NCBI GenBank assembly: GCA_024682375.1
Contig: JAIKZI010000007.1
Location: 6,815 to 70,814 of the forward strand
Direction of reading: 5' to 3'
Source: Lachnospiraceae bacterium
GTDB lineage: Bacteria; Bacillota; Clostridia; Lachnospirales; Lachnospiraceae
Length of the DNA stretch: 64,000 nucleotides
The position numbers and the translations under genes were made by a program. The notes below the pieces were generated by a model. It saw only the letters and a program-made list of their open reading frames with translations, had not been told where the DNA came from and ran no database searches. Positions 9,162 through 23,029 of this stretch are shown piece by piece (within the stretch, counting starts at the first letter, position 1; the number at the start of each line of letters is the position of its first letter).

Positions 9162-10280
9162 TTAAGCTCTTCTTGCCATTGCTTCTTCGTAATCCTTTGT
9201 ACCAACCCAAACTTCGTTTGCGTATGGGTTCTTGCCATTCTTAATAGAACGCTTGATGATAGCAGCCATAACTACTACGTTGATTGCGATTGCAAGTACT
9301 GCAACGAATCCCTGCATTCTAGGATCAGCTACGATGCCCATGTCAGCGATAGCTTTTCCAGCTGCTGCTGTCTTACCTTCGCCTGCATTGTAGATATCAA
9401 TAGCCTTTGAGTAAAGGTCCATAGTTGTGATTCCCTTTGCTGTAGCGTTTCCATAAACTGATGGAAGTGCTGCTGCAAATTTACCATCAAGCTGGAATAG
9501 AGGCACAACCTGAGCCCACATACACCAGATAGCAAGTGTGTTAGCACGGTTCTGGATCCAAGCACCTTTGTTCCAGAATGCGTTTGCAAATGTAGGTGCA
9601 AGAAGAAGTGCAACACCACAGTACCATGTATGAGTTGGAAGGTTCAAATATGTATATTCGAAGTTCCATACATCGTATGCAAGAATGAACATAACTGTCA
9701 TATCAGGCCAAAGCATATCTGACTTGTTCTTGTCGTTTGATGTGTAAAGATGTACACAACCTGTCATACAGAAGATGTTGATAAGACCTGCGATAGCGTT
9801 TAGGATATTCCACCATCCACCGTAGATGAATACACCTTCGTTTGAGCACCACCAAGCACCGCTTAAGTTTCCTGAAACCTTGTAAGCTGCAAGAGCTGAT
9901 TCCATATCAGAAACGTTTGCGATCATAATGTTAGCAGCTACGATGAGCCATGGGAACCAAGCAAACCATTTTTCTTTGCCAATGCCCCATTTGTACTTGA
10001 TCATCATGAAACCTACGCATCCGATGTCAGCTGCGTAAAGTTTAAAGTAGTGGAACCAACCATCCATGTAAGCAACTGTAGGGTTGTCATGTCCACCGAA
10101 CATTCCGCAATGAGCGGCGATAAAGTAAACAGTAAGAACAACAGGTATGATTACAAATACAAGCATACCGCCTACTTTTGTTCTACGACCAATCTCGTTC
10201 ATGATGATTAGACCTGCGAATACAAGTAACCATCCGAGCAGCTGCATTGCAGCATGGTCGCTGTAAAGTTGAAATAGCAT
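9162..10280 (-). CDS. Polytopic membrane protein of unknown function (DUF5692-like)
   Basis: About 9 hydrophobic segments; motifs GGWWNILNAIAG, WPDMTVMFILAYDVWN, WIQNRANTL; RBS GGAGGGA; codon usage typical of highly expressed genes. Confidence 0.75.
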   Translation of the reverse strand: MLFQLYSDHAAMQLLGWLLVFAGLIIMNEIGRRTKVGGMLVFVIIPVVLTVYFIAAHCGMFGGHDNPTVAYMDGWFHYFKLYAADIGCVGFMMIKYKWGIGKEKWFAWFPWLIVAANIMIANVSDMESALAAYKVSGNLSGAWWCSNEGVFIYGGWWNILNAIAGLINIFCMTGCVHLYTSNDKNKSDMLWPDMTVMFILAYDVWNFEYTYLNLPTHTWYCGVALLLAPTFANAFWNKGAWIQNRANTLAIWCMWAQVVPLFQLDGKFAAALPSVYGNATAKGITTMDLYSKAIDIYNAGEGKTAAAGKAIADMGIVADPRMQGFVAVLAIAINVVVMAAIIKRSIKNGKNPYANEVWVGTKDYEEAMARRA

Positions 10281-10332: not shown

Positions 10333-10385
10333 ACATTAAGAAAAAATTAAATGGACAAATATGCATTTATGTTTACGTTTAATGC

Positions 10386-10419
10386 AAAAAAGCCTAGAAA
10401 TCAAGGATTTCTAGGCTTT
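10386..10419 (-). terminator. Rho-independent terminator after the HPr-LDH gene
   Basis: AAAGCCTAGAAATC-AAG-GATTTCTAGGCTTT with a T tract on the minus strand. Confidence 0.75.
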
Positions 10420-10487
10420 CACTGACCAATATTCATTTTCTTTCGAAACCGAAAATTTGAATTTGGTTTCTCTTTTTTAAAGATTTA

Positions 10488-11789
10488 TTATTTAACTTCA
10501 GCTGGTCCGTATGGATGAGACTCGTTGAAGTTTCTAGCATTTTCTAATGTTACAGCTGCAATAGCCTGGAGTGCTTCACGTGTGAAGAACGCCTGGTGAG
10601 ATGTAAGAATTAGGTTAGGGAAGTTTGTAAGTCTAGCAACAATATCATTTGAAAGCATATCTTCTGAATGATCTGTGTAAACGTTTGAATCTTCACCTTC
10701 GTATACATCAAGTGCAACTGCATGGAACTTGTTAGCCTTAAGTCCTTCGATAAGAGCTTCTGTATCTACAAGACCACCACGTGATGTGTTTACAAGCATA
10801 ACATTTTCCTTCATCATAGCGATTGCATCTGAATCGATAAGATGATGTGTACCACCCTCGCCCATAATAAGTGGAGCGTGAAGTGAAATCAAATCAGAAC
10901 GTGAAAGGAGTTCTTCTTTTGAAACATATGTAAGAAGTCCATCCTCTTCAAGCTTCTTATTAGGATAAGCATCCCAACCAAGAACTGTCATTCCATAACC
11001 CTTGCAGATTCTAGCCATACATACACCGATACGGCCAGTTCCCATGATACCTGCAACCTTGTTATGAAGGTCGATACCAAGAAGACCTGAAAGTGCAAAG
11101 TTGTTATCTCTTACTTTGTTGTAAGCCTTGTTGATACGACGGTTAGCGGCCTGAATGATTGTCATAGCGTGCTCTGCTACTGCGTATGGTGAGTAAGCTG
11201 GAACACGAAGAACTGTCATTCCGTATTCTGCTGCAGCCTTTGCATCAACATTGTTGAAACCAGCACAACGAAGAAGGATAAGTTTAACTCCGCCATTGTG
11301 AAGAGTTTCAATTACAGATCTAGGACATTCATCATTTACGAAGATACATACTCCGTCGAATCCCTTAGCAAGCTGTGCAGTCTCTTCTGTAAGTCTTGTG
11401 CTGAAATACTTAATATCTACATTATATGCACCATCTCCGCGATCCTTTGAAAGTTCGCTGAAGAAGATTCTGTCATAATCCTTAGTTCCGAAGAAAGCGA
11501 TCTTAAGAACGTCGGCCTTTTTTGCCTTATTAACAACTACTTCGTTAAAAACCTCTTCGATCTTTGCCAAAGCTTCATCTTCATCTGGGCCATCAGCTGT
11601 AATCTTCAATACTGTACCATTCTGTGCATCAAGTGAAAGAATCTGAAGTACATTGTTGGCATTTGCCTTTGCTTCATCAGTTTCAATTGTTACGATACTT
11701 TTGAATGCAGTACATGCCTGTGCAATCAGAGCTGCTGGTCTAGCATGAATTCCAAGTGGATTTTCTACAACGTGTTCGATAGTCTTCAT
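10488..11789 (-). CDS. ldhA: Fusion of an N-terminal HPr domain to a D-lactate / D-2-hydroxyacid dehydrogenase
   Basis: GIHARPAA (His15) domain, then GTGRIG, NTSRGG, LDVYEGE, TSHQAF. Start moved to ATG 11789 (MKTIEH) because of the AAAGGAAA RBS. Confidence 0.9.
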   Translation of the reverse strand: MKTIEHVVENPLGIHARPAALIAQACTAFKSIVTIETDEAKANANNVLQILSLDAQNGTVLKITADGPDEDEALAKIEEVFNEVVVNKAKKADVLKIAFFGTKDYDRIFFSELSKDRGDGAYNVDIKYFSTRLTEETAQLAKGFDGVCIFVNDECPRSVIETLHNGGVKLILLRCAGFNNVDAKAAAEYGMTVLRVPAYSPYAVAEHAMTIIQAANRRINKAYNKVRDNNFALSGLLGIDLHNKVAGIMGTGRIGVCMARICKGYGMTVLGWDAYPNKKLEEDGLLTYVSKEELLSRSDLISLHAPLIMGEGGTHHLIDSDAIAMMKENVMLVNTSRGGLVDTEALIEGLKANKFHAVALDVYEGEDSNVYTDHSEDMLSNDIVARLTNFPNLILTSHQAFFTREALQAIAAVTLENARNFNESHPYGPAEVK

Positions 11790-11842
11790 AGTTATTTCCT
11801 TTCCCAAATCTATAATGAAACATAACGTATCTAACGCTCGAT

Positions 11843-11860
11843 TTGATAATATCTTAACAC
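11843..11860. promoter_or_regulatory. Putative Rex operator upstream of the HPr-LDH gene
   Basis: TTGATAA-TATC-TTAACAC, 2 mismatches to consensus; ldh genes are canonical Rex targets. Confidence 0.65.
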
Positions 11861-12018
11861 TTAACCCTATCCTAATTCATCGTGTAAACTTCACCAAATT
11901 TGAATTGCGAAAACTGTTATTTATTATACTTTTACCAAATCTCGCTAAATCTGGACTCTAAAGAAACCAAACTAGAACATATTTCAAGTAAATCCGAGTC
12001 TTTTTCTATTATATACCA

Positions 12019-21397: not shown

Positions 21398-23029
21398 TTA
21401 TTTTGTGACAGGAAGGATAATCTTATAAAAAGTTCCCATTCCGTTTATTTTTCTATCTGAAATAGATATCTTTCCACCGTGAGCTTCTACTATTGACTTT
21501 GCAATAGAAAGTCCGAGGCCTGTACCCTGACCATTGCTTCTTGCATTTTCTGCAACTACAAATGGTTCAAAAATCTTCTCTTGAAGTTCTTTAGGAATAC
21601 CAGGGCCATTATCTCCGATTTCAATCTTCATGATATCTTTTCCATAACGAAGAGTAAAATAAATAGTCGTTCCCACATCTGTATAGCGGACAGCATTTGA
21701 AATGATATTTTCAAATACTCTCTTCAGCTGCATTTTATCAAATTTAACATATACTACTTCTTCAGGAATCTCTACATCGACTTCATATCCACCTACTGTA
21801 AGCTCCTGATATTTAGATGCAACATATTCTCTGAAATATTCACATATATCATCCTTCTCCAAATTATATTTGAACTTCGGATGTTCAAGTCTTGAAAAAT
21901 CACTAAAAGAATTAATTAGTTCAACCAGAGTAGAAGTCTTTTGACTAATGATTTCCAAATATTTTTGTCTTTCATATTCTGGAATGAGGCCATCACGCAT
22001 AGCATCCACATAACCTTGAATAACCGTAATAGGAGTTTTCAAATCATGTGAAATATCAGCTAACATCTTCTGACGAGCATCTTCCGATTTCTTTAACTGT
22101 AATTCCATATTATTAAACGTTTCTACAACCTGATTAAATTCCTTTGTACCTTGCTGGGTATTAATCTGTTCCCTATCGCCTCTCGCGAAACCATTCATAG
22201 CAATTCTTAGCTGTTTCAAAGGCTTTCTCATCTTAGAAGATATCCTAAAGATAGAGAAGAATACAGCAATCATAACCATGATCACATATGTAAATACAAG
22301 AATTATATGTCGTCTTAAAATGATACCCTCAACCTTTTCATAAGGACTTTCGTAGTGAATGAGAAGATATCTGGTATCGCCAGAATTAGTCTTAAACTTA
22401 TACTTCTGAAGAATTAGTCCATACTCATACTTCATATTTTCAGCTGAACCCATCAGATACTCAAGCTCTTTTTCGGTAATCTTGCTGCCTTCAAAATCCA
22501 TATTTGTATAGATAATTTCATTCTTTGAATTTATAACTGTGATACCGTTTACAGCCTCACCTGTCTTTTCATCATATGCAAATCTGATAACCAAATAACC
22601 ATATTCACCTTTTTTCGTAATAGGATAAATTGTATAGTTTACATCACGATTCAAGTCTTCGATGTACTTCGTTGAATATTCATCATATTTATTATGATAT
22701 GAGGTGTTAGAAGAATAATAAATCTTTCCGCTATCATCGATTACTTCGATGTAACCTTTCTTTCCGATATAGTTTTTCAACACAATATCGCTGTATTTTT
22801 CTTCTTTTAACTTTTCCTTCTGATCGATAATCTTTTCAGTCTTTACCTTTCTATAAGTCGTCTCGGAAATCTTCTGACCAGCTTTTATAAAGAAAAAAGT
22901 CAAAATAGTAACCATTACAATCAACATAAAAAGGTCTTTAAGCAAAAAGAGATAGAAGCTAGGAGCTTCCTCTCTTCTCTTTTTTATGTATGAAATTATA
23001 TTAAAGCGTTTCTTACAGTTTTTCCTCAT
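21398..23029 (-). CDS. Sensor histidine kinase (HAMP, HisKA, HATPase)
   Basis: DISHDLKTPIT, FENIISNA, DNGPGI, GTGLGL; two TM segments. Confidence 0.95.
   Translation of the reverse strand: MRKNCKKRFNIISYIKKRREEAPSFYLFLLKDLFMLIVMVTILTFFFIKAGQKISETTYRKVKTEKIIDQKEKLKEEKYSDIVLKNYIGKKGYIEVIDDSGKIYYSSNTSYHNKYDEYSTKYIEDLNRDVNYTIYPITKKGEYGYLVIRFAYDEKTGEAVNGITVINSKNEIIYTNMDFEGSKITEKELEYLMGSAENMKYEYGLILQKYKFKTNSGDTRYLLIHYESPYEKVEGIILRRHIILVFTYVIMVMIAVFFSIFRISSKMRKPLKQLRIAMNGFARGDREQINTQQGTKEFNQVVETFNNMELQLKKSEDARQKMLADISHDLKTPITVIQGYVDAMRDGLIPEYERQKYLEIISQKTSTLVELINSFSDFSRLEHPKFKYNLEKDDICEYFREYVASKYQELTVGGYEVDVEIPEEVVYVKFDKMQLKRVFENIISNAVRYTDVGTTIYFTLRYGKDIMKIEIGDNGPGIPKELQEKIFEPFVVAENARSNGQGTGLGLSIAKSIVEAHGGKISISDRKINGMGTFYKIILPVTK

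Follow-up and report, generated by a model that had tools for sequence, protein, structure and literature searches.

An HPr–D-lactate dehydrogenase fusion family of rumen and gut Firmicutes with a predicted Enzyme I phosphorylation site and a replaced Ser46

Introduction

Can a fermentative dehydrogenase be controlled by a PTS phosphocarrier that is part of the same polypeptide? This question is raised by a gene within the window, by which we mean the entire 64,000-nt stretch of Lachnospiraceae DNA analyzed here. The window was drawn from a draft genome of 85 contigs. We delineated the gene and its domains, compared it with its homologs, inspected the genomes that carry it, and weighed several explanations for the presence of an HPr domain in front of a D-lactate dehydrogenase (D-LDH).

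Results

A single reading frame joins HPr to a D-lactate dehydrogenase

The gene is located at positions 10488..11789 on the minus strand. Its stop-free translation yields 433 aa and the stop codon occupies 10488-10490; ORF and translation, domains and homologs identify it as a complete CDS for an HPr–D-LDH fusion. Upstream of the ATG at 11789, a Shine-Dalgarno sequence, GGAAAGGAA, can be read at 11796..11804 (minus strand). The HPr (PTS phosphocarrier) domain comprises residues 1-82 (11544..11789, minus strand), as defined by PF00381, TIGR01003 and the AF2 model. The Pfam PTS-HPr match covers residues 5-82 (E 1.4e-24; 86.4 bits, cut-off 23), and the TIGR01003 HPr_family match residues 1-82 (E 1.2e-22; 79.7 bits vs. 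a cut-off of 47.9). An inter-domain linker of residues 83-94 (11508..11543, minus strand), assigned from the alignment and an AF2 pLDDT of ~65, leads to an LdhA-type NAD-dependent D-LDH domain with a GTGRIG NAD motif (residues 95-433; 10491..11507, minus strand). This domain was recognized by its catalytic residues and by the Pfam domains 2-Hacid_dh (PF00389; residues 123-424, E 3.4e-29) and 2-Hacid_dh_C (PF02826; residues 211-400, E 3.1e-45). The open reading frame, the Pfam and TIGR matches and the presence of the catalytic residues bear out the preliminary description of this locus, which had reported an HPr domain in frame with an intact D-2-hydroxyacid dehydrogenase.

The junction between the HPr and dehydrogenase parts contains no ATG, GTG or TTG, making the fusion obligate. 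The position of the dehydrogenase's former start methionine is occupied by Leu, Ile or Phe in 73 of 75 family members, which counts against an artificial joining of two adjacent genes during assembly or annotation. Given the distribution of the fusion over independent assemblies and cultured isolates described below, such an artifact can be dismissed with near certainty.

The HPr domain keeps the Enzyme I site and has lost the HprK site

HPr residue numbers are used here in register with B. subtilis HPr. The window protein carries the motif G13-I-H15-A-R17-P-A-A (GIHARPAA, residues 13-20). Within this G-x-H-A-R-P-A motif, the codon of His15, the predicted site of phosphorylation by Enzyme I, lies at 11745..11747 (minus strand). 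Residues G13, H15, A16, R17, P18 and A19 are invariant in all 75 species-level homologs. Because the mean pairwise identity of the HPr domain is just 51% over the same 75 homologs, this invariance points to selection acting on the phosphorylation site.

The segment around position 46 reads A42-N-A-N-N46-V-L-Q-I-L-S-L53. Helix 2 is thus N-capped by Asn46 (codon at 11652..11654, minus strand) instead of the Ser46 that HprK phosphorylates. Of the 75 members, 59 have Asn at this position, 11 Asp, two Ser, and one each Glu, Gly and Lys. Ser46 is therefore replaced in 73 of 75 members, and its retention in just two indicates that HprK control was dropped family-wide. Residues able to cap a helix N-terminus (N, D, S or G) are found at this position, likewise in 73 of 75 members. 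Judged from its sequence, the HPr module keeps all requirements for His15 phosphotransfer and has lost the HprK/CcpA site. The earlier observations that His15 is kept and that Asn replaces Ser46 therefore hold throughout the family, with His15 and Arg17 invariant in 75 of 75, and the proposed independence from HprK/CcpA is a sound inference in view of the replacement of Ser46.

Position 46 is occupied by Asp or Glu in approximately 16% of the members. The S46D substitution impairs phosphorylation of free HPr by Enzyme I. The same substitution mimics Ser-P (PMC2788870). Charging by Enzyme I may hence be poor in the Asp46 and Glu46 members.

AF2 predicts the elements E2-7, H16-27, E32-36, E41-43, H47-52, E60-66 and H70-86 for the HPr part with a pLDDT of 90-96, corresponding to an open-faced beta-sandwich in the order beta-alpha-beta-beta-alpha-beta-alpha.

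A linker of fixed length leads to a complete D-LDH domain

The last helix of HPr ends at residue 86 and the first dehydrogenase strand begins at residue 95 in the AF2 model. The linker is 11 residues long in 68 of 75 members (range 10-12), and its sequence is free to vary, with a mean identity of 21%. A linker of fixed length fits a defined geometry of the two domains better than a loose tether. The full AF2 model (pLDDT 84, pTM 0.76) is confident for each domain, and no PDB chain among the structure matches covered both HPr and dehydrogenase.

The catalytic residues R337, E366 and H398, the glycines G250, G252 and G255 of the GxGxxG motif, and D273 are invariant in the fusion family. In the window protein, the catalytic and NAD-binding residues align with those of the D-LDH 5z21. 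Over its full length, the dehydrogenase part is ~44-46% identical to D-LDHs of known structure (5z21, 3wx0 and 5z20; E 8e-93 to 2e-88). Since the NCBIfam D-LDH models score below their curated cut-offs (PRK08605, 182 vs. 356 bits; PRK12480, 175 vs. 579; vanH_gen, 213 vs. 540), the assignment as D-LDH rests on the ~46% identity to characterized enzymes. The closest of these, FNLDH, also takes 2-ketobutyrate and 2-ketovalerate (PMC4230899).

With a mean identity of 76%, the dehydrogenase domain is more conserved than the HPr domain, which evolves faster, and the two domains have diverged in a correlated manner (r = 0.83). We listed 23 positions in the dehydrogenase domain that are specific to the fused clade. 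Several candidates for fusion-specific features, namely H242, H356, an MGEGG insertion and a KDxGxGxYN insertion, were discarded because the nearest unfused D-LDHs have them as well. Clade-specific residues being mostly common to the closest unfused relatives, we identified no fusion-specific docking patch on the dehydrogenase domain.

The fusion has a single origin and a patchy distribution

A search for the same domain architecture, as had been suggested earlier, yielded more than 120 clusters at 90% identity and 76 species-level genomes, including those of cultured isolates. Among the isolates are Lachnospiraceae bacterium KH1T2, Floccifex porci, Selenomonas bovis DSM 23594 and Bilifractor spp. 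In RefSeq, PGAP names such proteins ‘fused HPr family phosphocarrier protein/2-hydroxyacid dehydrogenase’, for instance in Bilifractor spp. and in Eubacteriales MAGs. The window protein is 74-94% identical to the so-named proteins at 100% query coverage, and they share the same three Pfam domains and a length of 432-434 aa. It is thus a member of a family already catalogued in RefSeq, where the name is an annotation label only. Our literature searches found no paper on an HPr–dehydrogenase fusion, its function, regulation or structure; the ‘HPr’ in a paper on a 2HADH knowledgebase stands for hydroxypyruvate reductase, not for the phosphocarrier.

In the phylogenetic tree, the fused proteins have one origin relative to unfused D-LDHs, and the window protein lies inside this single fused clade. 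The fusion is carried by rumen and gut Firmicutes scattered over the Lachnospiraceae, Erysipelotrichaceae, Oscillospiraceae and Selenomonadaceae. Such a patchy spread of a single-origin family suggests horizontal transfer, and repeated transfer between families in turn suggests that the fusion is beneficial without other genes. We also considered an ancestral HPr gene located just upstream of ldhA. Such an arrangement was not observed beside the nearest unfused relatives: none was present at the unfused locus L092, a LacI-type gene was found at L095, and L094 was too short to show it. In a survey of the family for further HPr fusions, the best 150 matches were all short ORFs.

The fusion is the only recognizable lactate dehydrogenase of most hosts

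A single LdhA-type match was found in all five fusion-carrying genomes of the family sample, including the window genome. Neither the window genome nor 36 of 50 hosts yielded a gene of the L-LDH/MDH family. On the basis of gene content, the fusion replaces a plain D-LDH rather than being an addition to it, and is the sole recognizable lactate dehydrogenase in most hosts, including that of the window.

Enzyme I is encoded in the window genome and in 49 of 50 fusion-carrying genomes. In genomes labeled as Oscillospiraceae, it was found in 8 of 8 with the fusion, whereas the family sample had it in 57 of 200 (Fisher p = 7e-5). HPr is almost universal in the Lachnospiraceae (199 of 201 genomes), so that the presence of Enzyme I alongside the fusion has no discriminating value in this family. 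The window genome further keeps HprK together with separate Ser46-bearing HPr and Crh paralogs for the HprK/CcpA route. It encodes two free HPrs with His15, one of them adjoining a PTS EIIC gene, and Crh-like paralogs that lack His15.

The fusion gene stands without conserved neighbors

In the window, the gene is flanked by a MatE transporter gene upstream and, past the terminator, by a gene for a DUF5692 protein downstream. The terminator is an intrinsic one, predicted by folding at 10382..10420 (minus strand), ~70 nt past the fusion stop codon, with a ~15-bp stem followed by a U-run. A 116-nt stretch of this region folds with -32.2 kcal/mol (z -5.3). The fusion gene is probably monocistronic. 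The neighbors vary among ~65 loci, in which we found no conserved operon partners and never a linked PTS gene.

A Rex-like inverted repeat, GTGTTAAGATATTATCAA, precedes the ATG by 54-71 nt (11843..11860, minus strand). It is a weak candidate with two mismatches in a genome that possesses a rex gene. Genome-wide, the Rex consensus matched 20 times vs. ~35 expected and is thus not enriched, none of the matches had one mismatch or fewer, and among 74 orthologous upstream regions only 8 contained a Rex-like box with up to three mismatches. We therefore treat Rex control of the fusion as weak. The upstream region 11790-12018 contained no CcpA cre site with up to two mismatches.

Discussion

A proposed regulatory role for the tethered HPr

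We infer that the phosphorylation state of His15 in the fused HPr tunes the attached NADH-dependent D-LDH, the main fermentative one of this organism, a reading to which we give about an even chance. In this scheme, Enzyme I~P would reversibly phosphorylate His15, whereby the fused HPr would report the PEP:pyruvate ratio and the PTS flux. The very short linker of fixed length would hold HPr against the dehydrogenase's catalytic domain, and enzyme activity would change with the phosphorylation state. The most likely direction would be that dephospho-HPr, when PTS sugar is abundant, leaves the enzyme active and permits lactate overflow, and that His~P-HPr, when sugar is scarce, dampens it and leaves pyruvate for ATP-yielding routes. 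This direction of control, drawn by analogy, is speculation, as is the comparison to FBP-activated L-LDHs offered in the preliminary description.

Control of lactate formation by the PTS state is consistent with the co-occurrence of Enzyme I, the fixed linker length and the allosteric behavior of the closest solved relatives. The proposal also draws on the invariant His15 motif, the family-wide replacement of Ser46, the correlated divergence and single origin of the fused domains, and the substitution of the fusion for a plain D-LDH. The D-LDHs of F. nucleatum, P. aeruginosa and E. coli are tetrameric and allosteric, and some are activated by FBP or Mg2+ (PMC4230899), which suggests that the dehydrogenase scaffold is responsive to allosteric input. 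In other LdhA-type D-LDHs, the N-terminal place taken here by HPr is filled by an unrelated sensor domain, cNMP_binding. Precedents exist for HPr acting in trans on enzymes and regulators: dephospho-HPr binds pyruvate kinase A of V. vulnificus when glucose is present (PMC5987630), HPr binds LsrK (PMC5983913), and in Firmicutes His~P-HPr not only stimulates YesS but also phosphorylates proteins outside the PTS (PMC2788870). The fusion would be a hard-wired version of such regulation in cis. Against the proposal stand the possibly poor charging of the Asp46 and Glu46 members, the non-discriminating co-occurrence with Enzyme I in the Lachnospiraceae, and the negative result of the search for a fusion-specific docking patch.

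Alternative explanations

The same features could be read differently. The fused HPr might be a working phosphocarrier from Enzyme I to EIIA in a PTS-fermentation metabolon, in which the tethered dehydrogenase reduces PEP-derived pyruvate at once and sugar uptake is stoichiometrically coupled to NADH re-oxidation without allosteric switching. The canonical phosphotransfer face (H15, R17 and a hydrophobic helix 2), the co-occurrence of Enzyme I and the established PTS chemistry by which Enzyme I makes the substrate of the fused enzyme all agree with this. However, the window genome already has two free His15-bearing HPrs, one beside a PTS EIIC gene, the fusion gene is never PTS-linked and has no conserved neighbors, the acidic residue found at position 46 of 16% of the members (Asp or Glu) would hinder high-flux transfer, and pyruvate diffuses freely, so that little would be gained from channeling; we consider the idea unlikely. 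Alternatively, His15~P might phosphorylate a residue in the dehydrogenase part and by this covalent modification switch its activity, as for glycerol kinase and PRD regulators in Firmicutes. Non-PTS proteins are indeed phosphorylated by His~P-HPr in this phylum (PMC2788870), and the dehydrogenase domain contains the invariant histidines H242, H304, H316 and H398 and the nearly invariant H356. Yet P0125 and P0130, the closest D-LDHs without a fused HPr, likewise have H242, H356 and the MGEGG insertion close by, so that these features did not come in with the fusion, and no acceptor motif is identifiable in the dehydrogenase domain, which leaves such covalent control very unlikely. Taken jointly, docking of Enzyme I on the tethered HPr with release of pyruvate beside the active site and phosphate still passing to EIIA, or else phosphorylation of the dehydrogenase by His15~P, would describe the family only with a low likelihood.

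Signaling might also run in reverse. The dehydrogenase would then sense its occupancy by NADH or pyruvate and gate access to His15, and the protein, by competing for Enzyme I~P, would inform the PTS network of redox or pyruvate status. The large open-to-closed transitions of the catalytic domain in D-LDHs of this clade (structures 5z20/5z21 and 6abi/6abj) and the short linker joining HPr to the catalytic domain in the AF2 model would suit such a sensor; against it, the dehydrogenase is catalytically complete and the sole LDH in most hosts, so that its main role should be metabolic, and we give this scenario little credence. Finally, HPr may be an inert appendage that serves folding, solubility or oligomerization only, its signaling lost. 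Its faster evolution relative to the dehydrogenase would be expected of such a domain, but the six-residue phosphorylation motif is invariant over 75 species from several bacterial classes, and HPr-like domains without signaling also lose His15, as seen in the paralogs of the window genome. This makes an inert role highly improbable.

Implications

If His15 phosphorylation tunes the enzyme, this would be, as far as we searched, the first fermentative dehydrogenase found hard-wired to the PTS. It would constitute a one-polypeptide switch that sets lactate against more ATP-efficient products according to sugar supply, without FBP, HprK or CcpA, and its covalent 1:1 layout would offer a simple model for the regulation of partner enzymes by HPr. 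The overproduction of D-lactate that follows a surge of sugar drives acidosis of the rumen as well as D-lactic acidosis, and the fusion may bear on both. Should direct pyruvate hand-over or phosphoryl transfer to the dehydrogenase be true instead, the family would represent a new coupling of sugar uptake to redox balance that also bears on lactate surges in the rumen; in the former case, one PTS transport event would be mechanically coupled to one NADH re-oxidation.

Comparison with known systems

FPr/FruB, MTP and DhaM are multidomain PTS phosphotransfer proteins that contain HPr. Like the fusion, they place HPr inside a larger polypeptide, but their HPr is partnered by PTS domains (EIIA, EI), whereas the fusion has only 2-Hacid_dh domains beside it. 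In the regulation by free HPr in trans (PykA, PMC5987630; E. coli LsrK, PMC5983913; Firmicute targets, PMC2788870), the phosphorylation state of His15 likewise signals sugar availability to a non-PTS protein. The HPr of the fusion differs in being linked covalently and 1:1 to its presumed target, and in the literature searched we found no fermentative dehydrogenase among the targets of HPr. The tetrameric allosteric D-LDHs (5z21, 5z20, 3wx0) share the fold of the fusion's dehydrogenase (TM ~0.8, normalized to the target) and its catalytic residues; they lack an N-terminal domain, and their effectors are small molecules or conditions (pyruvate, FBP, Mg2+, pH), not a protein domain. The cNMP_binding–D-LDH fusions (P0134, P0135, P0146 and P0167, one from a EukProt protist), apparently uncharacterized as well, belong to a different lineage and carry a different sensor, for cyclic-nucleotide binding, and resemble the family described here in placing that sensor N-terminal to an LdhA-type D-LDH.

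The fusion gene and its domains

The fusion gene (10488–11789, (−)) has a stop-free reading frame of 433 amino acids, in which an HPr domain (residues 1–82) is joined by a linker to an LdhA-type D-lactate dehydrogenase (D-LDH; residues 95–433). A Shine-Dalgarno sequence, GGAAAGGAA, lies 5′ of the ATG at 11789, and the sequence of the HPr/dehydrogenase junction leaves no possible internal start codon. About 70 nt past the stop codon, a ~15-bp stem forms a strong hairpin that is followed by a U-run, so the gene looks monocistronic. Directly downstream, past this terminator, a 372-aa multi-pass membrane protein of the DUF5692 family is encoded (9162–10280, (−); E 1e-126).

Pfam assigned PTS-HPr to residues 5–82 (E 1.4e-24), 2-Hacid_dh to residues 123–424 and 2-Hacid_dh_C to residues 211–400, and NCBIfam assigned HPr_family to residues 1–82. 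The top NCBIfam models for the dehydrogenase part are D-lactate dehydrogenases, every one under its curated equivalog cut-off. The nearest solved structures are D-LDHs with ~44–46% identity across the entire dehydrogenase part, from Fusobacterium nucleatum (5z21, E 8e-93), E. coli (3wx0, 5z1z), Salmonella (4cuj) and Pseudomonas aeruginosa (5z20); no PDB chain covering both domains was matched.

A widespread protein family

Searching 5.8 billion proteins yielded >120 clusters at 74–94% identity and 100% coverage, all with the same three Pfam domains. Scanning one genome per GTDB species, we recovered the fusion at full length in 76 of them (62–83% identity), mostly in rumen or gut MAGs, with Lachnospiraceae bacterium KH1T2, Floccifex porci and Selenomonas bovis DSM 23594 among the cultured carriers. 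This recurrence in clusters, species and cultured isolates excludes the assembly artefact considered in the preliminary description. At 50% clustering the entire family collapsed into one full-length representative, P0122, and the closest unfused D-LDHs, P0125 and the product of a 334-aa gene of genome G045, are ~61–63% identical. Another representative, P0124 (361 aa), combines the HPr domain with a dehydrogenase without ~70 residues of the NAD-binding domain; it may have arisen by deletion, be a pseudogene or result from mis-assembly.

RefSeq already has a name for this architecture, which NCBI gives to several of the clusters, e.g. in Bilifractor spp.; the KH1T2 protein is labelled “D-lactate dehydrogenase”. 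Our literature searches found no published study of an HPr-D-LDH fusion.

Conservation and predicted fold

Both motifs noticed initially, G13-I-H15-A-R17-P-A-A and A42-N-A-N-N46-V-L-Q-I-L-S-L53, were confirmed and line up with the numbering of B. subtilis HPr. In an alignment of 75 full-length members, G13, H15, A16, R17, P18 and A19 are invariant and A20, A23, Q24, C26, V47, L51 and L53 nearly so; the HPr module is canonical and predicted to be phosphorylatable at His15, the Enzyme I site. The proposed loss of Ser46, the HprK site, was borne out as well: the window protein has Asn46, and across the family N is the commonest residue at position 46 (59 members), ahead of D (11), S (just 2) and E, G and K (one each). 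The site for the HprK/CcpA route is thus missing from the fusion. Almost all of the residues found here are good helix N-caps, which suggests that structure, and not phosphorylation, constrains the position.

In pairwise comparison the HPr domains are on average 51% identical, the linkers 21% and the dehydrogenases 76%, and divergence in one domain correlates with that in the other (r = 0.83). The linker, though variable in sequence, is short and fixed in length, with 11 residues in 68 of the 75 members (range 10–12). The former start Met of the dehydrogenase is replaced by L, I or F in 73 of 75, and the catalytic and NAD-binding residues are invariant; by sequence, the D-LDH is catalytically complete. 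AlphaFold2, run on the fusion-family alignment, gave confident domains (overall pLDDT 84.3, pTM 0.76, HPr pLDDT 90–96). In this prediction ~8 flexible residues separate the C-terminal HPr helix, which extends to residue 86, from the first strand of the dehydrogenase, which begins at residue 95.

Host genomes and co-occurrence

The host genome (1.9 Mb, 36.8% GC, 94% complete) contains genes for Enzyme I and HprK. Counting the fusion, six HPr-fold genes are present, the other five lying at C77:13638–13928 (+), C19:95179–95457 (−), C45:28897–29193 (−), C81:661–894 (+) and C40:34976–35269 (−). One paralogue has His15 and Gly46 and adjoins a PTS EIIC gene, one has His15 and Ser46, a Crh-like one has Ser46 without His15, and two distant ones lack His15. 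The two phosphosites are thus split among the paralogues, and the fusion has His15 only. With HprK, HPr and Crh-like genes located elsewhere, the HprK/CcpA and transport branches are encoded apart from the fusion.

We detected no L-LDH/MDH-family gene in the host genome (94% complete). The only other clear 2-Hacid_dh gene there encodes a 308-aa paralogue of non-LdhA type; a third match, a 420-aa ORF on contig C22, is weak. Among 201 sampled genera of the host family, five carry the fusion, in each as the sole LdhA-type gene, and ~90 carry an ordinary unfused D-LDH (47–58% identity). An L-LDH/MDH-family gene was not found in 36 of 50 fusion-carrying genomes, and judged by sequence the fusion is the only recognisable LDH in most hosts.

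Enzyme I was found in 49 of these 50 genomes. Among Oscillospiraceae-labelled fusion genomes it occurs in 8/8, compared with 57/200 in the family sample (p = 7e-5). HPr is near-universal in Lachnospiraceae (199/201 genomes), so the Enzyme I association says little there. None of the ~65 fusion loci compared revealed a conserved neighbour gene.

Evolution of the fusion

In a maximum-likelihood tree all fused proteins form one clade relative to unfused D-LDHs; the family has a single origin. Host families are mixed inside this clade, and well-supported branches force at least six label changes for Erysipelotrichaceae, at least four for Lachnospiraceae and at least two for Oscillospiraceae. This suggests that the fusion has moved horizontally more than once between Firmicutes of gut and rumen, with the caveat that many rows of the tree are MAG bins. 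Three loci (L016, L022, L070) on short contigs of 2.6–21 kb are binned as Duodenibacillus, Bifidobacteriaceae and a Methanomethylophilaceae archaeon; their fusions sit on very short branches within Erysipelotrichaceae-dominated clades and are most likely mis-binned, not transferred to these phyla. An unfused, high-GC 344-aa D-LDH (P0130; locus L095, 748–1782), with a LacI-type gene upstream, was also placed within the fused clade. Its branch is long and its composition odd; either it has lost its HPr domain secondarily or its placement is a long-branch artefact.

Possible regulation

Enzyme I would reversibly phosphorylate His15, following PTS flux and the PEP:pyruvate ratio, and HPr, by touching the catalytic domain, would change the activity of the dehydrogenase according to its phosphorylation state. 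We infer that the dephospho form would be the active enzyme when sugar is plentiful, by analogy with dephospho-HPr, which binds V. vulnificus PykA when glucose is present (PMC5987630); this direction would fit lactate-overflow physiology. In Firmicutes, His~P-HPr also has non-PTS proteins among its targets (PMC2788870). The fusion would be an unstudied variant of HPr-mediated enzyme regulation. The nearest solved D-LDHs are tetrameric and allosteric, some being activated by FBP or Mg2+ (PMC4230899).

Apart from control through His15, the HPr domain may form part of a PTS-LDH metabolon or act as a bifunctional carrier, may pass its phosphoryl group onto the dehydrogenase in a GlpK-like manner, may signal in the reverse direction, or may be an inert appendage. 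A point against control through His15 is that Enzyme I could charge the ~16% of members with Asp or Glu at position 46 less well. In HPr, S46D weakens the reaction with Enzyme I. This substitution is a mimic of Ser-P (PMC2788870).

Many other LdhA-type D-LDHs carry an unrelated sensor, a cNMP_binding domain (PF00027), at the same N-terminal position. These proteins (P0134, P0135, P0146, P0167; 437–517 aa), one of which belongs to the EukProt protist set, seem to represent an uncharacterised sensor-D-LDH fusion paralleling the HPr fusion. P0127 (929 aa), whose cluster includes an MMETSP transcript, is another unusual D-LDH-family architecture, with a His_Phos_1 histidine-phosphatase domain and two tandem 2-Hacid_dh units.

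Candidate transcription signals

A Rex-like box lies 54–71 nt 5′ of the fusion ATG and a rex gene is present in the host genome; the Rex consensus is not enriched genome-wide there, and the box is seldom kept at orthologous loci. Upstream of the fusion gene no cre-like site was found. The sole zero-mismatch match to the cre consensus TGWAANCGNTNWCA in the window is TGTAAACGGTATCA at 22540–22553 (−).
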